Assembly (NCBI GenBank): GCA_002839125.1
Contig: PGXI01000001.1
Span: 1 to 37,335, forward strand
DNA: 37,335 bases
Source of the DNA: Tenericutes bacterium HGW-Tenericutes-5
Lineage (GTDB): Bacteria; Bacillota_I; Bacilli_A; Izemoplasmatales; Hujiaoplasmataceae
Reading direction: 5' to 3'
How positions within the stretch are numbered: position 1 is the first letter of the stretch; the number at the start of each line of letters is the position of its first letter. The notes below the pieces were generated by a model. The model was not told where the DNA came from. It saw only the letters and a list, made by a program, of their open reading frames with translations, and ran no database searches. The translations under genes and the position numbers were made by a program. Positions 2,128 through 20,893 of the stretch are shown one piece after another.

Positions 2128-4323
2128 CTATTTTGCCCACATTATATCTTGTAAATCTTCCATGATTTCATCGATTCTTGTTTTGTTTGCAGTAGTTAAG
2201 TTTGTGTAATCAAATCCAGCTACTTCTCCAGAAACAGTATCTAGAAAATCTAAAATGTCAGTTACAAGATCAGGATATGAATCAACTTCTAAATCCGCAA
2301 GCATTTCGTTTTCTAACAATACTACAACTGCATCGATGATGCCGTCTAAGTATCCACGAGTTTCATTATCAACTAAACCATCATAAACATCCATTAAGAA
2401 TGCAAATAGGAAATAGTCATTGTCTTCAGAATAAATATCTTCATAGTTGTCTTCATAAAGAGTAACGTATGCATTTGCATAATCTAAGAATACATCTTCT
2501 TCATCAAGATAAGCGAATATGTTTTTGATTAATCCATATTGTTCTTCTGTAGTACTTTCCATGAAAGTTTCAATATCAGTAATAATTGATGTTAAATCCA
2601 TACTGTTATCAGTACTTTCAACATTCATCATACTACCCATAGCCATTGGAATTACAAAGCCAACATAGTCAATGATTAAACCTCTTACAGTTTCAAAATC
2701 TTCTTGAGTTCCTTCGCTAACAACAGCGTTCAATAATGTAACTACTTCATTCATAACCTTGAATTGATAAACAGTATTATTATAATCATGTTCATCCCAA
2801 TCTCTAGTTTCCCAAGGTTCTTGATAAAACTCATCATTTAAAATATTGATTTCAGCAATTAACAATAAGATTGCGCCATCTGATTCAACAAATGCATCTA
2901 ATAAATCGTTGAATGCTTCATCAAAAATTTCGCTGACAGCCATTAATTGATCGTAATTAATGAATGCTAAATCTAATGTCATGCCTTCATCGGCTATTGC
3001 ATCTTCAAGAGTTTCTACATAATCATTAAACATTGCTTCTTTTTCTTCTTCTGTATAAACATTGTCGATTTCATCTAAAAGATCTTCATTTTCTTCTAAG
3101 AAGTTATCGAAATATTTAATAACCAATGTAGCTACTTTAGCTTGTTGAGTATATTCGTGATCAGTACTTGTCAAAATTGCTTTTAAATCTTCGAAGAAAG
3201 CTTGATCAAAATTGTCAACATAGTTAATGAAAGCTTCAAATGACAATAACATTGTTCCTGCCATTTTTTCTGGGCTTCCCATGTCACCAAATTGTACTTC
3301 TTGCATTTCTTCTAAGATTGCAGTCATAGAATATAAAGTATTGATAGCAAGAATTACATCTGTAGAATCTGGCATAGTAGTTCTTAAAATATTTACGATT
3401 TCGTCTTTAACTAAAACTAATTCCGCAACATTTAAGTCTTCTGGTCCTTCTGTTTCACTTAAATTTTGAATCTTAGTGATTAAGTCTTCTGTAATCATTT
3501 CTTCGATACTCATAATGTAATCAATAACAAACAATACAGTCTTTACAACTTCATCAGATGAATCAGCTAACATATCTTGTAATTCTTCTAAAGCGGCAAT
3601 TTCGTCATCGATTTCATCAACACGTTCTTGATAATAACCCCAATAATCTTGGTCATCATCAATCATTGATTGATACCAAGCTTGGTCATCTTCTAACATT
3701 TCGATTTGTTGATCTAATAAATCAGGAAGTAAGTATTTTACAACTGCAGAAATGATAGCTTCAGGATTTTCAACGCTTTCCATCATTGTATCGATAACTG
3801 CAAATCCTTCATTCATGTTATCAACATCATCCATGTCTTCAACGAATGTCATGAAAGCATCCACCATATCTTCAAACTCAGATGCTAACATCCCTTTATT
3901 TACTAATTCTTCAGCAAATCCAGGATCTAATTCCATAGGTAAGTTTTCGCTTAAAGCCAATTGCATAGCAGTAACTTCTTGTTCTTTATTTTCTACATAA
4001 GCAACTGAAGCACTTTGAGCAGAGTCTTGCATACCTTTTGGAGCTTTAGTAATAACGGTAAAAATAATTCTTGTTCCATCTAAACTTGAGAAATCATATG
4101 AATTAGTTTTAACTTCTTTAACTTCTTCTCCATCAGCATATACATAATATCCAGCCGCATTTTCTACAGCGTCCCAACTTAAAGTTTTTCCGTCTATAGT
4201 TAAATTGGTTGGAAATGCGATTTGTTCGTCATAACTAATTTCAACGTTAGAAGGATTACCACCACAAGCAGCAATACCTAAAACAGAAAATAGCATGATA
4301 AATACTAAAAATAATTTTTTCAT
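2128..4323 (-). CDS. hyper-acidic surface lipoprotein with N-terminal Fn3-like domain
   Basis: Signal peptide plus lipobox (MKKLFLVFIMLFSVLGIAAC). An Fn3-like segment follows (LTIDGKTLSWDAVENAAGYYVYADGEEV). The remaining roughly 600 aa are D/E-rich helical sequence with very few K/R. SD GGGGAGGA. Confidence 0.8.
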   Translation of the reverse strand: MKKLFLVFIMLFSVLGIAACGGNPSNVEISYDEQIAFPTNLTIDGKTLSWDAVENAAGYYVYADGEEVKEVKTNSYDFSSLDGTRIIFTVITKAPKGMQDSAQSASVAYVENKEQEVTAMQLALSENLPMELDPGFAEELVNKGMLASEFEDMVDAFMTFVEDMDDVDNMNEGFAVIDTMMESVENPEAIISAVVKYLLPDLLDQQIEMLEDDQAWYQSMIDDDQDYWGYYQERVDEIDDEIAALEELQDMLADSSDEVVKTVLFVIDYIMSIEEMITEDLITKIQNLSETEGPEDLNVAELVLVKDEIVNILRTTMPDSTDVILAINTLYSMTAILEEMQEVQFGDMGSPEKMAGTMLLSFEAFINYVDNFDQAFFEDLKAILTSTDHEYTQQAKVATLVIKYFDNFLEENEDLLDEIDNVYTEEEKEAMFNDYVETLEDAIADEGMTLDLAFINYDQLMAVSEIFDEAFNDLLDAFVESDGAILLLIAEINILNDEFYQEPWETRDWDEHDYNNTVYQFKVMNEVVTLLNAVVSEGTQEDFETVRGLIIDYVGFVIPMAMGSMMNVESTDNSMDLTSIITDIETFMESTTEEQYGLIKNIFAYLDEEDVFLDYANAYVTLYEDNYEDIYSEDNDYFLFAFLMDVYDGLVDNETRGYLDGIIDAVVVLLENEMLADLEVDSYPDLVTDILDFLDTVSGEVAGFDYTNLTTANKTRIDEIMEDLQDIMWAK

Positions 4324-13277: not shown

Positions 13278-13311
13278 AAAAAAAAGATTAGAATCTTATC
13301 AATTCTAATCT
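13278..13311 (-). terminator. rho-independent terminator ending the photolyase operon
   Basis: Stem AGATTAGAAT / ATTCTAATCT with a 7-nt loop. It overlaps the Nudix stop codon and is followed on the minus strand by T7. Confidence 0.8.
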
Positions 13312-13721
13312 TTAAATATTATATCTCGATGTAATTTATAGATTTCTATCATGTGACCGATATTACCTTCTCCAGCAAACTTTTCGGTATCATAGAAATT
13401 CTCTTCGATATCAATCCAATGAAGTTTGTGAACTTCTTCAATCAATTCTACGTCTTCTTTAAGTTTTCCAATAAAAACAATCATTTTCATGTCAATCGGA
13501 TGCCAAACAAAATCCATAAACATTGATAGTAATATATCGTTTTTGGTTATTCCGGTCTCTTCAAATAATTCCCTATAAGCACTAGCTAAATAGTCTTCAC
13601 CGTTTTCAATTTTACCGCCAACAAGATTAAACTTACCAATATATGGATTTTTTGATCTATGACACATTAAAACTTTATCTTCATTCTTATTTAAAACTAA
13701 AATCAAGTTAAATAACTTCAT
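13305..13721 (-). CDS. Nudix hydrolase (MutT-like size)
   Basis: Nudix box GGKIENGEDYLASAYRELFEETG. 138 aa. Confidence 0.85.
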   Translation of the reverse strand: MKLFNLILVLNKNEDKVLMCHRSKNPYIGKFNLVGGKIENGEDYLASAYRELFEETGITKNDILLSMFMDFVWHPIDMKMIVFIGKLKEDVELIEEVHKLHWIDIEENFYDTEKFAGEGNIGHMIEIYKLHRDIIFKD

Positions 13722-13728
13722 CCAAAAA

Positions 13729-14124
13729 TTACCAAATCCAATGATAAATCAAATATGTTAATAAACTAATAGAAGTTGATAAGAAGGTTCCCCAAATTAA
13801 ATCCACGATAGTAACTGTGATTGGCCAATCTTTTAAAGTTGCTAAATTAGTTAAATCATATGTTGCATAAGTCATGAATCCAAAAACTGCACCAGTTAAA
13901 ACAACCTTACCTAAGTCTTTAGCTTCTATGCCTGATTTTAGGAAAAATACAAGCCCAACAATAAACAGTAAATAAAACACTAAAGCCGCAATAAAGTTAG
14001 GTCTTTCAGCCATCAAATGACCGATTTGAGCTTTATAAAACTTCGGAGCCACTAATCCTAACCAGATAGCGTCAATAGCTAAAAACACCACAAAAGCTAT
14101 CGCATACATTTTAATAAAATTCAT
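13729..14124 (-). CDS. DUF2177-family 4-TM membrane protein
   Basis: 131 aa with four hydrophobic helices. The pattern IDAIWLG...P.FY matches DUF2177 as I remember it. SD AAGGGG lies inside the photolyase 3' end, with a 2-nt gap. Confidence 0.6.
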   Translation of the reverse strand: MNFIKMYAIAFVVFLAIDAIWLGLVAPKFYKAQIGHLMAERPNFIAALVFYLLFIVGLVFFLKSGIEAKDLGKVVLTGAVFGFMTYATYDLTNLATLKDWPITVTIVDLIWGTFLSTSISLLTYLIYHWIW

Positions 14125-14126
14125 AA

Positions 14127-15362
14127 TTATTCCCCTTTTCTTATTTCATTCATTTTTACTACATAATCTTCAATATTAAACTTTCTTTTTAAGCCATTGT
14201 CATTCATATATCTTAACTTACCAAATATTGGTCTTTCAGTCCAAGCTCTGTCATGTTTTCCAAAACACCAAGCCACACCACAATACCCATTTGGAGTAAA
14301 CCCATCAATAAAGTAATAATTATTTAACTCAATCGCAATATCATATGCTTCTTCATAACTTCTAGACCATTCTATAATTTTCTTACACCAATACATTCTC
14401 ATATAAGAATGCATTCTACCTGTATAAACCATCTCAATCATGGCCGCGTTAAAATATGGATCATGAGTATTAAAATTAATATAATCTTCTTTAGAATAAA
14501 TATACTCTCTTTTATCCTTTAAGTGTTGATTCATTGATTTATATGCCCAGTCATATGTCATATATTGAAATTGATCATATGTAGGATTAAAGTAGACAAA
14601 GTTATATGCAAGTTCTCTTCTTACAATTAACTCTTCTAAAAAAGCATCCTTATTTTCAGTATTTACTTTAGCTAACCGATCAAAAATTGTCACTGGTGAT
14701 ATAAATCCATATTTTAAGTATGCACTAAGTAAAGAGGTGTAATTTAATGATGGATCATTATGTAAATGGTAATTATCTAATTTATTTTCAATAAAATTAT
14801 CTAAAATTCTTAGCGCTTCTTTTTCACCAATTGTTGTTGGCATATTATCAAGCACTGAAATTCGATATTCATTAAGTTTTGAATTAATCTTATTTCTAAT
14901 TGTTCTGGCTGAATATTCTTCTTTATCAGAAGCTACTGATACTGGAACAAAAACATTTGACTCAACGGTAAAAAGATTTATGTTATTTGTTAAGCATTTT
15001 TGCTTAATTTGTTCATATTGATTTATGTCGAAGCGCAAATAGGCTTTATCTACAAAAATTGAATTAAAACCTGCTAATAAATCATATAACTTATCGTTTC
15101 TTTTTACATATTTAACACTGTCAGAAAAAAGCTTTAAATTATCAACCAAATCAATAGTATTTTGTTCAAAAAATTCTATATTTCGAGGATTCTCTTCATA
15201 AGGTTCAACGACAACTATCTCTAGTTTTAATTGATAAAATTTTGCATGATTTATAGCTTCATAAAGAGAATAATTATTTCTTATCCTAAATGATTTGGTC
15301 ATAATATAAAGGCATTTTTTATTATCGTTATTAAATTCTAATATTTTAAGTATTCTACTCAT
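14127..15362 (-). CDS. phr: class II CPD deoxyribodipyrimidine photolyase
   Basis: Class II signature blocks: KEEYSARTIR, FLEELIVRRELAYNF, THDPYFNAA, GRMHSYMRMYWCKKIIEW, PNGYCGVAWCFGKHDRAWTERPIFGKLRYMN..GLKRKF. The start abuts the upstream stop (TAAATG). Confidence 0.88.
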   Translation of the reverse strand: MSRILKILEFNNDNKKCLYIMTKSFRIRNNYSLYEAINHAKFYQLKLEIVVVEPYEENPRNIEFFEQNTIDLVDNLKLFSDSVKYVKRNDKLYDLLAGFNSIFVDKAYLRFDINQYEQIKQKCLTNNINLFTVESNVFVPVSVASDKEEYSARTIRNKINSKLNEYRISVLDNMPTTIGEKEALRILDNFIENKLDNYHLHNDPSLNYTSLLSAYLKYGFISPVTIFDRLAKVNTENKDAFLEELIVRRELAYNFVYFNPTYDQFQYMTYDWAYKSMNQHLKDKREYIYSKEDYINFNTHDPYFNAAMIEMVYTGRMHSYMRMYWCKKIIEWSRSYEEAYDIAIELNNYYFIDGFTPNGYCGVAWCFGKHDRAWTERPIFGKLRYMNDNGLKRKFNIEDYVVKMNEIRKGE

Positions 15363-16148
15363 TTATTTCTTGGGAAACCAGGGAATAAATGCATTTGTTT
15401 TTTTTGCGTATTCATCCCAACCAGGGGCTTCCTTCATCTTTCTTTCTAACATAGGAACACCGCTAACAAATCTCAGTAAGTAAGTTATAACAATTGGGCT
15501 AATTATTGATAGGTACTTCCAGAAAGAATCTGTTGGCATTGCTAAAACAACAATGAACAAACCCCACCACATAACTGCTTCACCAAAATAATTAGGATGC
15601 CTTGTATATTTCCATAATCCAGTAGTCATTAATTTTTGCAATTTATTCTTATTAGCAATATGTTTTTTTAATTGATAATCTCCTACAACTTCAAAGAAGT
15701 AACCGAAAATCCAAACTAAAACACCAATAACAACTAATATCCAACTGAAACCACTATCAAGCCCTGGAGTAACATTAATCCAAAACACTCCCAAACCAAC
15801 AACAAACATAAATAATCCTTGAAGCATAAAAACTTGTAAGAAAGCACGAGGCACTACCCATTTACCCCAGTCCTCACGCCACTTTTTATATCTAAAATCT
15901 TCTTCAGCAAAAATGTTTCTTTTTAAAATATAATAGAAAAGTCTTAATCCCCATAAACTAACCAAAACATTAACAATAATTTTATCAATGCCATAATCAG
16001 CTTTTACAAAGAAGAGAATCCAAGCCGTCACTACAAACCCTAATCCCCAGCCGATATCCACAATGCTATTATTCTTAATAATTGTTGCGACTACAAAAAA
16101 GACTAAAAAATAGATAAATATAACTAAAGCTGCTAATTCGATTCCCAT
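15363..16148 (-). CDS. DUF1295-family polytopic membrane protein (steroid-5-alpha-reductase/ICMT-like)
   Basis: About 6-7 TM helices. The C-terminal motif [19 protein letters not shown] is typical of DUF1295. SD AAGGAGA. Confidence 0.75.
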
Positions 16149-16160
16149 ATTTATTTCTCC

Positions 16161-17924
16161 TTATTTTTTTATATATCCAATCGCAACAGATCCCTTACCG
16201 CTATGAATAGCAGTTGCACTGGATACTTCTGATATATATTCCGGTTCTCTACCGATAATTTCAGTGAAAAGGACTTTATATTCATCTAATAGTTCTTGAT
16301 TTAAACAATGGATTAAAGCATATCTATCAATACCTTTGGTTTCCAAATCCTTTTTAACATGTTTAACTATTTTTTTTGTAATTCCCTTTTGTGATAAAGC
16401 AAATCCAAAAGCAGCTCCTTTACCTAATTCATCAATTGACATTATCGGTCTAATTCCAAAGAACATACCTATTTTACCAACTGCTTTAGGTAATCTTCCG
16501 CTCATCATTGCATACTTAAATGTTTCTAGACAAACTAAGATTTCCGATTTTGCTTTTTCTTCATTTAAAACTTTTTCTATTTCATCAATATTCTTTCCAT
16601 TTTTAAGCATTTCAACTGCTTTATTAACTAAAAGACCTTGAGCCACTGAATTTGTCAAAGTGTCTACAATTCTTATGTTTTTTCCCTTAGCTACTAACTG
16701 ATCGACCTCTTTTTTAATAACATTAAATGTTGCGCTTAAATTACTAGAAACAGCTACAACCAAGATATTCTTATAATTCAACAATAATTTTGAAAATAAA
16801 TCATTGATATATTTAATTGTTGGAGTTGCAGTTGTCGGATATTCTAGACTATTTTCAATCAAATCAAAAAGAATCTCATTATTCAAAGTAATTTTATCAA
16901 AATAAGTAATCCCTTCGATATTAACATTTAAAGGAATTACTACAACATTGTTTTCTTTTAAATAATTTTGATCAATATCGGCAATTGAGTCAGTAACAAT
17001 TACAGTATCACTTTCGGAATACTTCATATTGATATCACCAATCATGTCATCAACTTTTTGACTGATTACTTTACCGAATTTCCTTAATTCTTGGAATACT
17101 AATTCAGGTTGATTCGTATGAATATGGATCCTAAACATCTTAGCTCCCATAACGACAATCAAACTGTCTCCATAAGGTTTTAATGTTTCTTGGATAATTT
17201 CCTCTTTTTGATTACTATATTCAACTAAACCTTCTGTACAATATCTAAAATTAATTTCCTCATGAAAATCATGAGTATTTTCAATTTCTAGTTCTTCGTA
17301 TGCCATCTCTTCAATTTGTTCTTTATTGAAATAACTGTTAATACCCTTTAAGAATAAAACAAATCCCATTGCCCCACTATCCACGACATTATTCTTCTTT
17401 AATATCGCTAACTGTTCTTTAGTTTTCTCTAAAGCTTGCTCTGCTATAGTATAAGCAACCAAAAAGAAATCTTTGATATTTTTTGCGGCTGATAGAGTTT
17501 CTTTTAACCCTTTAGCCCATTCTTTAATTACGGTAATCATGGTTCCTTCCACAGGATTACTTAAAGATGAATATGTATGTTCTACACTCTCAAGAGCCAT
17601 ATCGGCAAACTCATCCAAACTCACTAATTCTTTACCTTTAGAGGCTGTTCTCAAACCATTAACAAACTGAGCAAAAATAACTCCACTATTCCCTCTAGCT
17701 CCAATAAGCGCTGAATCACTGATTGAATCTAAGGTAGTTTGAAAAGACTCTTGAGGTTTTGATTCTCTCGAGATTGTTTGCATAGTATAAACTAAATTAT
17801 TACCCGTATCACCATCAGGAACGGGAAAAACATTGATATCATTAAGTTTCTTTCGTTTCTTAACAACAAAAGTAGTCCCGTAGTTAAACATTTGATATAA
17901 ATCATGACCAGTTAGATATTCCAT
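16161..17924 (-). CDS. DAK2/DhaL (FakA-like N-terminal + middle domains) fused to a DegV (FakB-like) fatty-acid-binding domain
   Basis: N-terminus: FPVPDGDTGNN (DhaL/DAK2). Middle: FRYCTEGLV...GDSLIVVMG...RIHIHTNQP (FakA/YloV middle domain). C-terminal roughly 280 aa: VIVTDSIADI...VVIPLNV...YFD, ATPT, AVSSNLSATF, DTLTNSVAQG, MSGRLPK, IHSGKGSVAIGY (DegV). The start is moved to ATG 17924, 6 nt after SD GAGGTG. Confidence 0.75.
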   Translation of the reverse strand: MEYLTGHDLYQMFNYGTTFVVKKRKKLNDINVFPVPDGDTGNNLVYTMQTISRESKPQESFQTTLDSISDSALIGARGNSGVIFAQFVNGLRTASKGKELVSLDEFADMALESVEHTYSSLSNPVEGTMITVIKEWAKGLKETLSAAKNIKDFFLVAYTIAEQALEKTKEQLAILKKNNVVDSGAMGFVLFLKGINSYFNKEQIEEMAYEELEIENTHDFHEEINFRYCTEGLVEYSNQKEEIIQETLKPYGDSLIVVMGAKMFRIHIHTNQPELVFQELRKFGKVISQKVDDMIGDINMKYSESDTVIVTDSIADIDQNYLKENNVVVIPLNVNIEGITYFDKITLNNEILFDLIENSLEYPTTATPTIKYINDLFSKLLLNYKNILVVAVSSNLSATFNVIKKEVDQLVAKGKNIRIVDTLTNSVAQGLLVNKAVEMLKNGKNIDEIEKVLNEEKAKSEILVCLETFKYAMMSGRLPKAVGKIGMFFGIRPIMSIDELGKGAAFGFALSQKGITKKIVKHVKKDLETKGIDRYALIHCLNQELLDEYKVLFTEIIGREPEYISEVSSATAIHSGKGSVAIGYIKK

Positions 17925-17959
17925 TATTATGCACCTCAATAGTTTTAATTTATGGACAT

Positions 17960-17968
17960 ATTTTATCA
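17960..17968 (-). promoter_or_regulatory. candidate extended -10 (TGATAAAAT) for the Fak-photolyase operon
   Basis: Minus-strand TGATAAAAT lies about 35 nt upstream of ATG 17924 and downstream of the terminator at 18005-18038. The -35 is weak. Confidence 0.3.
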
Positions 17969-18004
17969 CAGAATGACTTACTATAAAATGATTAAGCATT
18001 TATT

Positions 18005-18038
18005 TTTAAAAAAATATCAAGCAAATTTTGCTTGATAT
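18005..18038 (-). terminator. rho-independent terminator of the padR-HAAS bicistron
   Basis: Hairpin ATATCAAGCAAA-T-TTTGCTTGATAT lies 5 nt after the stop and is followed on the minus strand by T7. Confidence 0.75.
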
Positions 18039-18042
18039 TAAT

Positions 18043-19029
18043 CTATTTTAAATGCTTAATTTTCTTGAAATACAAGCTAATTAAATCAATAATATTAGCT
18101 ACTATTATAATCCCAACTATTGAGGATTTAAATATATTAATGAAATTTTCAACTTGATTATAAGTAAAACTTAGTTCTGTAGAAATTCTAGTAATAAAAT
18201 CTACACTTATTAAATCTCCGGTTAAGAACACAACAGCAACAACTACACTAAATATCTTCGAGATAACATACATAATCAATAAGTTATAGTTCCATTGTGC
18301 ATATTTTATTTTGAATGCATATACTATAGCTTCAACAAATAATGATACTCCAAATATTAAAACAAATAATCTTGTATACTCTAGATTGAAAATACTTTCT
18401 TCAACAACCCATTCGCCGCCTACTTCAAACCAACCTAAATAAAGGTTGCTATAATATAAAATATATAACCATATACTTCCAAAGATTATTGTAACTACAA
18501 GACCTGCAATAGAACCACTTCTTGATATTGAAAGATTGGTCTTTTTTGGCACTTCAGGCAAGTCTTCAACTTTCCAATCATCTTTCTTTTCTCCATATCT
18601 ATCAATCGCAATAAATATTAGAGTAACAATCGCAAATCCGCTAAGCAAAGAACTAAATGCATTACCTATAGTTTCGAAGAAAACTTCAAAAATAGTTCCA
18701 AAAACCATATTTGACTCAATATTTTGCAGCGATTCAATCAGACCAAAAACAATCCCAATAGCTCCTAAAATAATCAATACAATCTTCAAAGTATAAAGAT
18801 AATCTCCCATCCATATAGGTGAAATCAGTCCTCTATAATTCCGATAGCTATTAGCAATTTGTCTTGGTGAACCCAATGAATAAAGCGCTCTTTTTACTTC
18901 TTCTTCATTAGATTCATCTTCAACCATTTCAAGAATATTGGCTCTTAATTCATTACCAACATCTTCTCTTTCTTCTTCTTTAAGTCTTCTTGTTACATCA
19001 TAAATATACTTTTCAATTAATTTACTCAT
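18043..19029 (-). CDS. HAAS (DUF1700)-domain membrane protein, about 6 TM; partner of PadR
   Basis: The N-terminus MSKLIEKYIYDVTRRLKEEEREDVGNELRANILEMVED...LGSPRQIANSY matches the DUF1700/HAAS pattern and is followed by six hydrophobic helices. The ATG at 19029 overlaps the padR stop (ATGAGTAA), with SD AGGTGA 5 nt upstream. Confidence 0.7.
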   Translation of the reverse strand: MSKLIEKYIYDVTRRLKEEEREDVGNELRANILEMVEDESNEEEVKRALYSLGSPRQIANSYRNYRGLISPIWMGDYLYTLKIVLIILGAIGIVFGLIESLQNIESNMVFGTIFEVFFETIGNAFSSLLSGFAIVTLIFIAIDRYGEKKDDWKVEDLPEVPKKTNLSISRSGSIAGLVVTIIFGSIWLYILYYSNLYLGWFEVGGEWVVEESIFNLEYTRLFVLIFGVSLFVEAIVYAFKIKYAQWNYNLLIMYVISKIFSVVVAVVFLTGDLISVDFITRISTELSFTYNQVENFINIFKSSIVGIIIVANIIDLISLYFKKIKHLK

Positions 19030-19360
19030 TAGTTTCACCTACAATTTTCATAATTTCTTCGTTAATTTTTTTCCATTCATTTAATAACTCATCTAATACT
19101 TCTTTTCCCAAATCACTAATTTCATAGTATTTTCTAGGTCTTGCCGAAGATGTATCCCACTCACTTTCTAATAAACCCTGACTTTCTAGTCTTCTCATTA
19201 AAGGATATAAGGTCCCCGCTTCTATCGATAGGTCTTTATCAATTAACTTCTCTAATAAAGAGTAACCATATTCTTTATTGCTTAACTGACTTAAAACCAT
19301 CATTATTTGTGTGCCTCTTCTGAGTTCGACCTTTAACGACTCAATGTCAACTTTACTCAT
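19022..19360 (-). CDS. PadR-family transcriptional regulator
   Basis: 112 aa winged HTH: YGYSLLEKL....IEAGTLYPLMRRLESQGLLESEW......RKYYEISDLGK. SD GAGGTG. Confidence 0.88.
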   Translation of the reverse strand: MSKVDIESLKVELRRGTQIMMVLSQLSNKEYGYSLLEKLIDKDLSIEAGTLYPLMRRLESQGLLESEWDTSSARPRKYYEISDLGKEVLDELLNEWKKINEEIMKIVGETNE

Positions 19361-19377
19361 TTTACCACCTCGAATAT

Positions 19378-19407
19378 ATTATACTGTATGTCATACTATA
19401 TTGTCAA
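19378..19407 (-). promoter_or_regulatory. consensus sigma70 promoter of padR-HAAS
   Basis: Minus strand: TTGACA (19402-19407), 18-nt spacer, TATAAT (19378-19383). The -35 is centred in the 15-bp palindrome TATATTGTCAATATA (19397-19411). GTATG-N-CATAC (19386-19396) lies in the spacer. Confidence 0.7.
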
Positions 19408-19453
19408 TATAAAATTATTAATTTTTTTAAATTTTTATTCTTGTGCAAACGAG

Positions 19454-19481
19454 TTGACAAATTGTCATAATATGATATATT
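19454..19481 (+). promoter_or_regulatory. near-consensus sigma70 promoter of the heliorhodopsin gene
   Basis: TTGACA (19454-19459), 16-nt spacer, TATATT (19476-19481). The -35 overlaps the perfect 13-bp palindrome TGACAAATTGTCA (19455-19467). SD AAAGGAGA lies 8 nt before the ATG. Confidence 0.65.
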
Positions 19482-19513
19482 TAAATTAGAAAATAAATAA
19501 AGGAGATATAACA

Positions 19514-20305
19514 ATGGAAAAAACAAGTTTTCAAAGCTTAAGAAAGTTTAATTTAATTATGGGCGCTATACATTTTGTACAGGGCATACTAATGATTATT
19601 TTATCCTCAACAGTAATTCAAACAATTTCCGAATTCAAACCTACTATTACCCAAATATTTTTAAGATTTGACACCACTACTCAATCACTAGTGGTTGATA
19701 TGAAAAATCTATTTGATTTACCTTTCGGTATCATGGTAGCTTTATTCTTACTACTATCAGCTGCTGCTCATGCTATTATTTCTTTACCTAAAAAGACGAA
19801 TGCCATTTACAACGCCGACCTTGAAAAAGGTATTAATCGTTTCAGATGGTATGAATACGCGCTAAGTTCATCAATAATGATCGTTTTGATTTCCACTCTA
19901 TTTGGAATCTATGACATCGGATCATTAGTTTTAATCTTTATCGTTAACGCCAGCATGAACCTATTTGGTCTATTGATGGAACAAGTTAACTCTGGAAGAG
20001 AAAAGAAAGATATTAAATGGGGAGCTTTTATCTTCGGTTCAATCGCTGGACTAGCTCCTTGGATTGTAATTATCCTTTACATGGTTGGTAATGGCAATTA
20101 CGAAATGGTTCCATGGTTTGTTTGGGCGATCGTAGGTACATACTTTGTAGCTTTCAATACTTTCCCAATCAATATGATTCTTCAGTACAAAGGGATTGGA
20201 AAATGGAAAAACTATCTTTATGGTGAAAGAGTATATATTACTTTAAGTCTAGTAGCTAAAACTCTTCTTGCTTGGTTAGTTCTATTTGGAGCCATGCAAC
20301 CATAA
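19514..20305 (+). CDS. heliorhodopsin (retinal-binding 7-TM protein with inverted topology)
   Basis: Block-wise near identity to heliorhodopsin 48C12 as remembered: RFRWYEYALSSSIMIVL (counterion Glu114), FIVNASMNLFG, IAGLAPWIVIILY, LQYKGIGKWKNYLYGERVYITLSLVAKTLLAW (Schiff-base Lys249, codon 20258-20260). His20 and His86 sit at the conserved His positions. Confidence 0.9.
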   Translation: MEKTSFQSLRKFNLIMGAIHFVQGILMIILSSTVIQTISEFKPTITQIFLRFDTTTQSLVVDMKNLFDLPFGIMVALFLLLSAAAHAIISLPKKTNAIYNADLEKGINRFRWYEYALSSSIMIVLISTLFGIYDIGSLVLIFIVNASMNLFGLLMEQVNSGREKKDIKWGAFIFGSIAGLAPWIVIILYMVGNGNYEMVPWFVWAIVGTYFVAFNTFPINMILQYKGIGKWKNYLYGERVYITLSLVAKTLLAWLVLFGAMQP

Positions 20306-20324
20306 AATCTTATTTTTAAAAATA

Positions 20325-20366
20325 AAAAGCATATATATCCTGAAAATGGATTATATGCTTTTTTTA
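20325..20366. terminator. bidirectional terminator shared by the heliorhodopsin gene and the convergent Nudix gene
   Basis: AAAAAGCATATATATCC / GGATTATATGCTTTTTTT (one bulge), 7-nt loop, with A-run and T-run on both flanks. Confidence 0.7.
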
Positions 20367-20893
20367 TTATTTTTGTAATATTCAAGAATTTTAATATCTC
20401 TAGTCACAATAAATTTTGTAATATAAATATTTTCATATTTACTTCCGATTAAGTTATCAAAACTATTTTTCATTGTTTCTAAAGCTTTGTCTATATCCAT
20501 CCAAAGTAGGGTTCCACCTTCTTCTTTTTCCTTTTCAGTTAAGTTGAGAAAATTGTTTTGTTTACTACATTCACCGATAAACACTTTGCTAATCTGTTTG
20601 AAATTACTTTGTGATTTATGTTCTTCAATATAACCTATTTCTCTAACACTACTTAAAATGCAGCCGGTTTCTTCTTTTACTTCTCTAATGAAAGCTTCTT
20701 TAAATGACTCTCCATTTTCAACACCGCCACCTGGTAATTTAAACTCATTTTTATTAACTTTATTGAAAATGGCAATTTTATTTTCCTTATTATAGACTAT
20801 TCCTCTAGATGCATAGCGAATAATCGGATTGTTAAAAGGTATATTTTCATAACCAATATCAGAATCTTTTATTATAGCGATTAAATTATCCAT
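20351..20893 (-). CDS. Nudix hydrolase
   Basis: Nudix box GGGVENGESFKEAFIREVKEETG. 180 aa. Confidence 0.85.
   Translation of the reverse strand: MDNLIAIIKDSDIGYENIPFNNPIIRYASRGIVYNKENKIAIFNKVNKNEFKLPGGGVENGESFKEAFIREVKEETGCILSSVREIGYIEEHKSQSNFKQISKVFIGECSKQNNFLNLTEKEKEEGGTLLWMDIDKALETMKNSFDNLIGSKYENIYITKFIVTRDIKILEYYKNNKKSI

Follow-up and report, generated by a model that had tools for sequence, protein, structure and literature searches.

The window, that is, the whole 37,335-nucleotide stretch of DNA analysed here, contains a heliorhodopsin gene (HeR) and, divergent from it across a 153-bp intergenic region, a padR gene followed by the gene of a HAAS-domain membrane protein. The genes, promoters and terminator of the locus, together with the cluster downstream of the HAAS gene, are as follows.

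19514-20305, plus strand: heliorhodopsin (HeR), 263 aa, full-length PF18761 match
19022-19360, minus strand: padR, small PadR-family wHTH regulator, 112 aa, PF03551
18043-19029, minus strand: HAAS-domain membrane protein, 328 aa from the ATG at 19029 (PF22564, alignment A1, AF2)
19378-19407, minus strand: padR-HAAS promoter, -35 TTGACA (19407-19402), 18-nt spacer, -10 TATAAT (19383-19378), 12/12 consensus
19454-19481, plus strand: HeR promoter, -35 TTGACA (19454-19459), 16-nt spacer, TGn-extended -10 TATATT (19476-19481), 11/12 consensus
18013-18039, minus strand: intrinsic terminator hairpin 3' of the HAAS gene, 12-bp stem, T-runs on both strands (terminator scan)
13305-17924, minus strand: co-directional cluster downstream of HAAS with its own promoter (this row and the next five from Pfam and NCBIfam)
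16161-17924, minus strand: Dak2-FakA_M-DegV fusion
15363-16148, minus strand: DUF1295 gene
14127-15362, minus strand: class II-type photolyase
13729-14124, minus strand: DUF2177 gene
13305-13721, minus strand: NUDIX gene

The profile PF18761 matches the HeR protein over positions 1-242 of 242 (E=1.4e-97; 326 bits against a cutoff of 26.7), and the NCBIfam HeR equivalog NF038020 scores 303.9 bits against a cutoff of 100. In the segments SLVAKTLLAW and RWYEYALSS, the lysine and the glutamate presumably occupy the positions of the Schiff-base lysine in the last helix and of the helix 3 glutamate counterion, respectively. The closest GTDB locus (L006), from an Izemoplasmatales MAG, encodes a HeR 100% identical to that of the window. 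The PadR protein matches PF03551 with 63 bits (cutoff 27), and its profile match and its size of 112 residues assign it to the small subfamily 2, as defined in PMC3506622. Its closest solved relative is the PadR-like 4EJO (E=2e-30 over residues 6-107); the LmrR-type and bcPadR-type chains 3F8B and 4ESB align at about 1e-9.

The membrane protein matches PF22564 (34.1 bits; cutoff 27) and carries the GxP motif of HAAS domains, with G53 and P55 invariant across the 26 homologues of alignment A1. The homologue alignment also agrees with the start ATG at 19029. In the AF2 model (mean pLDDT 84), an N-terminal four-helix HAAS module is fused to 6 TM helices, and the protein also carries an extracytoplasmic beta-hairpin. 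A fold search of the PDB with this model returned no match (best E=1.3), and a profile search of PDB sequences returned only a chance match to CrcB (E=0.81); the 6TM domain is therefore without a solved relative in the PDB. The start codon region of the HAAS gene overlaps the padR stop codon by 8 nt (ATGAGTAA). Together with the profile matches, this overlap confirms the gene identities and the translational coupling of padR to HAAS assigned in an initial annotation of this DNA.

The two strong divergent promoters recognized in that annotation are indeed near-consensus, the HeR promoter also having a TG extension. The padR-HAAS promoter is kept in nearly all loci of the family. The HeR promoter includes a conserved GCAA box (19445-19448), and the elements GCAA-N5-TTGAnn and TGnTATATT are conserved over HeR loci both with and without PadR-HAAS. 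At L012 and L077, where PadR-HAAS is not adjacent, the same architecture (GCAA-N5-TTGAca ... TGnTATATT) is found. The hairpin 3' of the HAAS gene has a folding energy of -11.9 kcal/mol (RNAfold); most cluster-linked loci likewise have a terminator behind HAAS, those of L009, L010 and L087 being poor. An Rfam scan of positions 17700-20500 yielded nothing near any gathering score, and thus no riboswitch or sRNA to explain the conserved leaders.

Palindromes and the predicted PadR operator

Three palindromes in the intergenic region had been singled out, two of them around the -35 boxes and one, GTATG-N-CATAC, in the padR promoter spacer.

19381-19401, minus strand: predicted PadR operator, a 21-bp dyad filling the padR promoter spacer; minus-strand sequence ATATAGTATGACATACAGTAT, family consensus ATAGTGTATGaCATACAGTAT
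19397-19411, no strand: 15-bp palindrome TATATTG-T-CAATATA around the padR -35, outer arms not conserved
19455-19467, no strand: palindrome TGACAA-A-TTGTCA over the HeR -35, not conserved

All three are present at the positions given for them; however, only the spacer dyad proved to be conserved. With arms of 5 or longer, 9 palindromes were counted in the 153-bp region, some of them at two loop sizes, against 2.6 expected from dinucleotide shuffles, about 0.6% of which reach 9. In 21% of such shuffles, some palindrome has arms of 7 or longer. The outer arms of the palindrome around the padR -35 differ between loci, reading TATATTGTCAAGAAA in L006, TATATTGTCATAAAA in L007 and ACTATTGTCAAGTAT in L014.

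The spacer dyad extends into a 21-bp predicted operator, ATAnTGTATGnCATACAnTAT, which overlaps the first bases of the padR -10. The arrangement TTGACA-ATAGTGTATGnCATACAG-TATAAT, with its N18 spacer, recurs in 79/84 distinct PadR-HAAS loci, most of which lack HeR, and the predicted operator is also kept in the HeR-less L002, L004, L088 and L089. What had been termed an operator-like dyad is thus a conserved predicted operator. Inside the 21-bp palindrome, TGT and ACA lie 7 nt apart (nTGT-ATGnCAT-ACAg), and this TGT-N7-ACA core resembles, but is not identical to, the canonical PadR ATGT/ACAT repeat with its spacing of 8-10 nt. A PWM of the operator scored 22-34 bits at the true padR-promoter sites, including 28.9 bits at the window site. 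In a scan of 1.78 Mb of loci, covering about 8 kb on each side of every locus, nothing exceeded 13 bits away from padR promoters and nothing exceeded 8 bits at the HeR or Dak promoter of any locus; the 37-kb window contains no second good match. Given that the -10 bases confound the full-length PWM, the scan was repeated with the 13-nt core alone, which gave a single extra site, TGTATGACACACA in L105, just downstream of the Dak -10.

The initial annotation had also suggested that HeR is under PadR control, a claim that is not supported by the sequences compared here: the conserved PadR box is confined to the padR spacer, and no HeR-linked locus has one at its HeR promoter. In its most direct form, PadR would repress HeR through the TGACAAATTGTCA palindrome over the HeR -35, one repressor thereby serving both divergent promoters. 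That palindrome does exist and does overlap the -35, the stretch TGTCATAaTAT (19463-19473) repeats TGTCATAcTAT of the padR operator, and divergent PadR/target pairs, possibly with one shared operator, have been discussed elsewhere, as in the case of LadR and mdrL (Hauf et al. 2019, PMC6624303). However, the palindrome is limited to the window and to L006, L007, L008 and L090, relatives with at least 95% identical HeR, and is absent from seven other HeR-PadR-HAAS loci (L009, L010, L014, L087, L091, L092 and L099). Its degenerate pattern TGACANNNTGTCA, with one mismatch allowed, is expected about once per window by chance in such AT-rich DNA. Moreover, the HeR promoter is unchanged in the PadR-less L012 and L077, and at L086 HeR and padR do not share an intergenic region. 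We consider repression of HeR through this palindrome extremely unlikely, and the palindrome is probably not an operator. Since the HeR promoter is separate and strong, with an extended -10 and without a PadR box, PadR is probably not its controller; the centre of the predicted operator, about 80 nt upstream of the HeR -10, also lies too far away for classical repression.

The TTGA...TCAA-type palindromes at the HeR -35 of L010, L014, L086 and the window were considered as a common operator and rejected, because they are spaced differently (by 1, 3 or 6 nt) and are missing from other loci. As a separate observation, several divergent loci place the HeR -10 at a distance of exactly 80 nt from the padR operator, which may reflect a constraint and counts against reading padR-HAAS as a self-contained module.

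Gene neighbourhoods and the heliorhodopsin-associated island

Gene neighbourhoods were compared over about 170 related loci, a tabulation suggested in the initial annotation. PadR lies immediately upstream of HAAS in 79/80 metagenomic loci, the exception being a truncated contig; metagenomic relatives of the PadR-HAAS-6TM family number at least 490. None of the neighbouring gene families turns up repeatedly in more than about 11% of loci. HeR adjoins the pair in 4/44 HAAS-sampled loci (40 without HeR), and PadR-HAAS adjoins HeR in 6/80 HeR-sampled loci (74 without the pair). An iterative PadR and HAAS HMM search of these 80 HeR loci, also at relaxed thresholds, found no further PadR or HAAS neighbours except a lone PadR 4 kb from HeR (L012) and marginal 150-aa matches in L061 and L062 (E about 0.007). 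All HeR-linked pairs belong to one clade, from Izemoplasmatales and relatives. Thus, in the loci compared, a HeR-PadR/HAAS linkage is conserved within one clade only. The linkage was not found in the HeR-neighbourhood studies consulted (Chazan et al.; PMC11109279; PMC9769723), and literature joining heliorhodopsin with PadR gave only spurious matches, such as the author name Padros.

The cluster downstream of HAAS corresponds to a HeR-associated neighbourhood already published, comprising Dak2-DegV, DUF1295, photolyase and DUF2177 (Chazan et al. 2021, bioRxiv 10.1101/2021.02.16.431466; Nat Commun 2024, PMC11109279). In the cluster-linked HAAS clade, all 14 of 14 members carry this cluster and 12 of 14 carry HeR. 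The clade keeps its place in this HeR/Dak island down to about 36-40% HAAS identity, with changed outer flanks; one member lies on the complete chromosome of Candidatus Izemoplasma sp. B36 (L014). At L086, DUF2177 and photolyase flank PadR-HAAS, which is 3.3 kb away from HeR. L002 and L105 keep PadR-HAAS and the Dak cluster without an adjacent HeR; conversely, HeR and the Dak cluster stand without PadR-HAAS at L011, L012, L032 and L077.

PadR-HAAS might regulate the Dak2-DegV/DUF1295/photolyase/DUF2177 genes, by read-through from the very strong padR promoter or through secondary operators, as a lipid/photoprotection stress switch. Consistent with such a role, in every case Dak (the type A arrangement) or photolyase (L086) lies downstream of the pair on the same strand; the HAAS-photolyase gap of L086 holds just a weak 5-bp hairpin and no obvious promoter; the terminators of L009, L010 and L087 are poor; and the L105 site immediately after the Dak -10 has a placement expected only about 0.005-0.02 times by chance. 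Against it, most loci have a clear terminator 3' of HAAS, and the Dak promoter is separate and conserved, with its own, different palindrome AAATGCTTAATCATTT that is shared by the PadR-less L012 and L077. A PadR box is missing from the Dak promoter in the window and in 12 other loci. We regard regulation of the island by PadR as unlikely. A second proposal would make the HAAS-6TM protein a partner of HeR: the two would be in contact, the photocycle would be turned into release of PadR, and padR-HAAS, with any distant PadR targets, would be light-regulated in this clade. The two polytopic membrane proteins are encoded by neighbouring genes, HeR adjoins 12 of the 14 clade members across divergence down to about 36-40% HAAS identity and with changed outer flanks, and the HAAS-PadR dyad has been proposed to relay membrane-domain signals (Ravi et al. 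2024). HeRs are also reported to act through binding of partner proteins. In this respect the earlier statement that no HeR partner or transducer is established is dated, as photolyase (PMC9769723), glutamine synthetase and ABC-transporter partners have been reported.

However, the linkage has a single evolutionary origin with no independent recurrence among the 74 other HeR loci, 40/44 HAAS-family loci lack HeR, either partner persists with the Dak cluster without the other, and the clade tracks the Dak-DUF1295 genes (14/14) more closely than HeR. A transducer role of the HAAS protein is hence weakly supported, and we judge contact with HeR and light-regulation of padR-HAAS to be very improbable. 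The fuller scheme for the Izemoplasmatales-type clade, in which HAAS-6TM would have been recruited as the HeR transducer and light would change the 6TM domain so that the HAAS groove frees PadR for light-dependent transcription, is a shade more doubtful still; if true, it would be the first rhodopsin-to-transcription pathway via a PadR-HAAS dyad. In a softer variant, the dyad may sense the photo-oxidative or lipid state of the membrane served by the HeR/DegV/DUF1295/DUF2177/photolyase island. At the other extreme, the adjacency could be devoid of functional meaning, a gene order inherited within a small lineage. The single origin of the linkage, the self-contained module with unrelated contexts elsewhere, and the occurrence of PadR-HAAS and HeR each without the other all favor this view; the survival of the linkage through deep divergence and an internal rearrangement (L086), with different genes beyond the island, speaks against it. 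We consider it possible, though rather unlikely.

The TATG-N2/5-CATA dyads at the Dak transcription start were rejected as PadR sites because they are spaced unlike the operator and because L012 and L077, which are PadR-less, have them too. The PadR-box-like site of L105 is a separate case, and counts against a reading in which PadR acts only on its own operon.

Proposed model and comparison with known systems

The operator footprint and the neighbourhood comparison lead us to favor, as the probable explanation, a self-contained, insulated and autorepressed membrane-signal module of the published PadR-HAAS type. In this putative model, a PadR dimer would bind the 21-bp dyad ATAnTGTATGnCATACAnTAT, whose footprint is conserved in about 80 loci; since the dyad takes up the entire spacer of the consensus promoter from which the module itself is transcribed, binding would shut off padR-HAAS transcription. 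The co-translated HAAS protein would detect a membrane-associated cue via its 6-TM domain, and its cytoplasmic HAAS/GxP groove would then release or sequester PadR, leading to derepression of the operon, both steps by analogy with the model of Ravi et al. and with Listeria LltR-Lmo0600. The operon would end at its own terminator. The adjacency to HeR would be due to one module clade, of Izemoplasmatales and related Bacilli, having been embedded once in the known island and then retained. With such a single embedding, a functional tie would most plausibly concern the membrane-lipid or photodamage state handled by the island, rather than HeR transcription. That the clade has stayed within the HeR/Dak island despite divergence hints at a functional tie beyond the module model.

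With little known about what heliorhodopsin does, a signalling partner dedicated to it would be of value. The present analysis removes the most attractive part of the proposal, in which operators would be shared and PadR would control HeR. What remains is a sharply defined predicted operator (ATAnTGTATGnCATACAnTAT in TTGACA-N18-TATAAT) of a widespread, uncharacterised PadR-HAAS-6TM family, and one clade of the module stably embedded in a HeR-associated lipid/photoprotection island.

Sensory rhodopsin-transducer pairs such as SRII-HtrII and Anabaena SR-ASRT are co-transcribed and co-distributed. The window resembles them in having a rhodopsin gene beside a signalling gene; in contrast, its HeR and PadR-HAAS genes are divergent with their own promoters, and each family mostly occurs without the other. 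Compared with published HeR neighbourhoods (Chazan et al.; PMC11109279), the window carries exactly the reported island, whereas the regulator family listed there is MerR, PadR and HAAS not being among the reported families. In Bacillus cereus bcPadR1 (BC4206)-BC4207 and in LmrR, a PadR-s2 protein recognizes an inverted repeat of the ATGT/ACAT type within its own promoter, and the bcPadR1-BC4207 membrane-protein pair is induced by a membrane-active peptide (PMC3506622). The window likewise pairs a PadR-s2 regulator with a neighbouring membrane-protein gene, its predicted operator being TGT-N7-ACA within a 21-bp dyad as against the ATGT-N8-10-ACAT of bcPadR1/LmrR.

The view of PadR-HAAS as a two-component-like dyad, expressed in the initial annotation, is a published one: Ravi et al. 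2024 (mSystems, PMC11237479) present the HAAS-PadR dyad as a proposed alternative to two-component systems, in which HAAS domains with GxP always stand beside a standalone PadR wHTH and are fused to uncharacterized 6TM, 4TM or 2TM domains. The window shares the GxP motif, the adjacent PadR and the 6TM fusion with the dyads described there, but lacks their PspC, LiaF or Toastrack context; the embedding of its clade in a HeR/DegV/photolyase island is an association not found in the text consulted. A close parallel to the favored module is Listeria monocytogenes LltR (Lmo0599)-Lmo0600-Lmo0601, an operon that is autorepressed about 150-fold, with a regulon essentially confined to the operon's own genes (Hauf et al. 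2019, PMC6624303). Unlike the window, the Listeria locus has a third gene, DUF4097/Toastrack (Lmo0601), and no rhodopsin or Dak/photolyase context. As in the window, the gene of a small PadR repressor immediately precedes that of a polytopic membrane protein with a DUF1700/HAAS domain, and the restriction of the LltR regulon to its own operon is matched by a predicted operator that the window carries only at the promoter of the module itself.

Organization of the padR–HAAS and heliorhodopsin region

In the window, the gene of heliorhodopsin (HeR) is separated by a 153-bp intergenic region from the divergent padR, which is directly followed by the gene of a HAAS-domain membrane protein (HAAS-6TM).

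19514–20305, + strand: HeR gene (Pfam PF18761, E = 1.4e-97; NCBIfam HeR equivalog, 303.9 bits against a cutoff of 100)
19022–19360, − strand: padR (PF03551, 63 bits)
start ATG at 19029, − strand: HAAS-domain gene (PF22564, 34.1 bits)
18013–18039: terminator with a 12-bp stem, 3′ of the HAAS gene
beyond the terminator, on the HAAS strand: separate operon of a Dak2-FakA_M-DegV fusion, DUF1295, class II-type photolyase, DUF2177 and NUDIX (Dak operon)
intergenic region: padR promoter, TTGACA-18-TATAAT, 12/12
intergenic region: HeR promoter, 11/12, with a TGn extension

Alignment with 25 homologues assigned the HAAS start codon to ATG 19029; it and the padR stop codon thus overlap in ATGAGTAA, the reading given by the initial annotation. 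In the same alignment the two residues of the HAAS GxP motif, G53 and P55, are invariant. In the AlphaFold2 model (mean pLDDT 84), four short helices at the N terminus are followed by six TM helices, with a small beta-hairpin on the extracytoplasmic side. Searches by fold and by sequence found no solved relative of the 6TM domain. The class II-type photolyase (14127–15362) matches TIGR00591 (phr2) with E = 2e-104, yet under its cutoff; in Pfam it shows only a weak N-terminal photolyase domain, with no reported match to FAD_binding_7.

The three palindromes described initially were all found in place: a 15-bp palindrome at the padR −35 (19397–19411), GTATG-N-CATAC in the spacer (19386–19396) and a 13-bp palindrome at the HeR −35 (19455–19467). 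The intergenic region holds nine short palindromes against 2.6 expected, a number reached by about 0.6% of dinucleotide shuffles. Of the shuffles, 21% contain a palindrome with arms of 7 or more, and with one mismatch allowed the HeR-side pattern should turn up by chance about once per window. Symmetry by itself is weak evidence in AT-rich DNA; we therefore judged the elements by their conservation.

Conservation of the predicted PadR operator

With the HeR protein as query, a scan of GTDB species genomes returned 80 HeR loci of 48%–100% identity, among them an Izemoplasmatales MAG (L006; L-numbers denote related loci) with a HeR 100% identical to that of the window. Searching for homologues of the HAAS protein retrieved MAG proteins from Izemoplasmatales, Bacilli and Acholeplasmataceae, and a metagenome scan with the resulting alignment yielded at least 490 relatives, from which 80 loci were retained; seven further contigs were added by exact-protein look-ups.

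In 79 of 84 distinct PadR–HAAS loci, most without a nearby HeR, the padR promoter reads TTGACA-ATAGTGTATGnCATACAG-TATAAT in padR orientation, down to loci whose HAAS is only 27%–30% identical to the query. Position frequencies define the conserved block as a 21-bp dyad, ATAnTGTATGnCATACAnTAT, which occupies the promoter spacer and extends into the −10.

19381–19401: predicted PadR operator, PWM score 28.9 bits (true sites, 22–34 bits)

The spacer dyad GTATG-N-CATAC forms the core of this newly defined predicted operator and is the only one of the three symmetric elements that looks functional, the other two not being conserved. The 15-bp palindrome has different outer arms in L006, L007 and L014, so its symmetry is incidental to the −35 hexamer. 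The HeR palindrome TGACAAATTGTCA is confined to the window, L006–L008 and L090, with HeRs of at least 95% identity, and is missing in L009, L010, L014, L087, L091, L092 and L099, all with HeR beside PadR–HAAS. The TGT/ACA cores of the operator lie 7 nt apart, similar but not identical to the canonical PadR repeat ATGT/ACAT with 8–10 nt spacing (PMC3506622). Outside padR promoters, no site in the 1.78 Mb of collected loci exceeded 13 bits in a PWM scan, and the 37-kb window holds no second good match.

These data bear on the initial proposal that PadR controls HeR. In every HeR-linked locus, PWM hits above 8 bits were confined to the padR promoter. The conserved elements of the HeR promoter are GCAA-N5-TTGAnn and TGnTATATT, equally conserved in L012 and L077 though PadR–HAAS is absent there between HeR and the Dak operon. 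Moreover, the operator centre lies about 80 nt (range 72–86) upstream of the HeR −10, which is too far for steric repression. Given the lack of an operator at HeR, the unconserved palindrome and this distance, PadR control of HeR is not supported. Across the window, L006–L008, L010, L014 and L090, the distance to the HeR −10 (at 19476 in the window) is exactly 80 nt in several loci despite diverged sequence in between, which could reflect a constraint. A conserved (A)AGCAA box, set 5 nt before the HeR −35 (19445–19448; also in L009, L010, L012, L014, L077, L086, L087, L091 and L092), is common to HeR loci with and without PadR–HAAS and could be a UP-like element or an activator half-site.

Genomic neighbourhood and possible control of the island

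PadR–HAAS was found in six of the 80 HeR loci, all Izemoplasmatales-type (L006–L010, L014); iterative HMM searches, relaxed thresholds included, detected none in the other 74. The conserved linkage envisaged initially thus holds within one clade only. Elsewhere HeR directly faces Dak2-DegV/DUF1295/photolyase (L011, L012, L032, L077) or shares a strand with Dak2-DegV (L046, L050). In L039 (1055–3159) and L080 (58–1811) a photolyase gene lies immediately 3′ of HeR on the same strand and overlaps it, consistent with the published HeR–photolyase partnership.

Among HAAS-sampled loci, 4 of the 44 distinct ones with sufficient upstream sequence have an adjacent HeR and 6 of 41 an adjacent Dak cluster; other neighbour families (EamA, ClpB, flavodiiron protein, Y-family polymerase and others) each reach at most about 11%. 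Outside the HeR clade (L004, L089, L088, L151 and others), PadR–HAAS-6TM often neighbours stress-type genes: ClpB, flavodiiron protein, ECF sigma factor with glutathione peroxidase, Y-family polymerase and AP endonuclease 2.

In a neighbour-joining tree of 75 HAAS proteins, all cluster-linked ones form one clade of 14 members, 14 with Dak-DUF1295 and 12 with HeR (exceptions, L002 and L105). The linkage thus arose once and has been retained across deep divergence (HAAS about 36%–40% identical), and it follows the island (the Dak2-DegV, DUF1295, photolyase and DUF2177 genes) more closely than HeR itself. L086, a member of this clade, is rearranged (HeR <-> Dak-DUF1295-DUF2177-PadR-HAAS-photolyase), with PadR–HAAS 3.3 kb from HeR and no intergenic region in common. 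Genes flanking the island on the outside vary between loci.

Two further observations concern HeR itself. Tandem HeR pairs occur in one Izemoplasmatales and one Bacillota MAG (L061, 4829–6461; L062, 7158–8795), with a weak PadR-like 150-aa ORF about 1 kb downstream (E ~0.007). HeRs 61%–74% identical to the window's lie on diderm-assigned contigs (L040, L042, L043 and L044, Spirochaetales/Sphaerochaeta; L038 and L080, labelled Muribaculaceae). Diderms are reported to lack HeRs. Mis-binning may explain the short contigs but perhaps not the 229,760-bp Sphaerochaeta contig (L044).

The Dak operon has its own promoter region.

17951–18001, − strand: Dak promoter region
17986–18001, − strand: near-palindrome AAATGCTTAATCATTT, Dak −35 region
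− strand: TGTGATAAAAT, extended −10
17951–17960, − strand: TATG-N2-CATA dyad at the likely Dak transcription start

All three elements are conserved in the PadR-less L012 and L077; in L014, L086 and L105 the dyad has a spacing of 5 nt. Together these features suggest a further regulator or a leader hairpin. Such a separate promoter with its own conserved elements argues against control of the island by PadR–HAAS, directly or by read-through, as do the terminator after HAAS in most loci and the lack of a PadR box at the Dak promoter in the window and 12 other loci. We consider such control unlikely but give it some weight because of two features. Terminators are weak in L009, L010, L087 and, upstream of photolyase, L086, where leakage into downstream genes is possible. 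In addition, L105, which has PadR–HAAS and the Dak cluster without adjacent HeR, carries TGTATGACACACA (3112–3124), a 12/13 match to the operator core directly downstream of the Dak −10; the Dak2-DegV start follows 34 nt later. No other secondary PadR-box candidate was found at a promoter in the collected loci.

Putative mechanism and relation to known systems

We propose a putative model in which PadR dimers would bind the 21-bp dyad in the consensus-promoter spacer and autorepress padR–HAAS, as its footprint suggests. By analogy, HAAS-6TM may sense a membrane-linked cue, whereupon the HAAS groove would lift repression. The unit would be insulated by its own terminator. HeR and the Dak operon have separate promoters with conserved elements of their own. 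For the cue, the lipid state of the membrane or photo-oxidative damage is the best guess, though a speculative one, given that one clade has kept its place in an island concerned with lipids and photodamage. Synteny alone hints, weakly, at HAAS-6TM as a HeR transducer, the other role suggested initially.

The HeR-DegV-DUF2177-DUF1295-photolyase neighbourhood, Dak2-DegV fusions included, has been published (Chazan et al.; Nat Commun 2024), as has HeR–photolyase binding; neither PadR nor DUF1700 is mentioned in the texts and supplements consulted. The PadR–HAAS dyad, which the initial annotation had named as a proposed two-component-like switch, is indeed described, with fusions to 'uncharacterized 6TM' domains (Ravi et al. 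2024). The window module belongs to this known type; its genomic association with HeR is unreported but lineage-restricted. In Listeria, lltR-lmo0600-lmo0601 forms an operon in which a PadR is encoded together with a DUF1700 multi-TM protein and a third protein; it shows about 150-fold autorepression with a regulon of essentially its own operon. The operator distribution predicts the same behaviour here.
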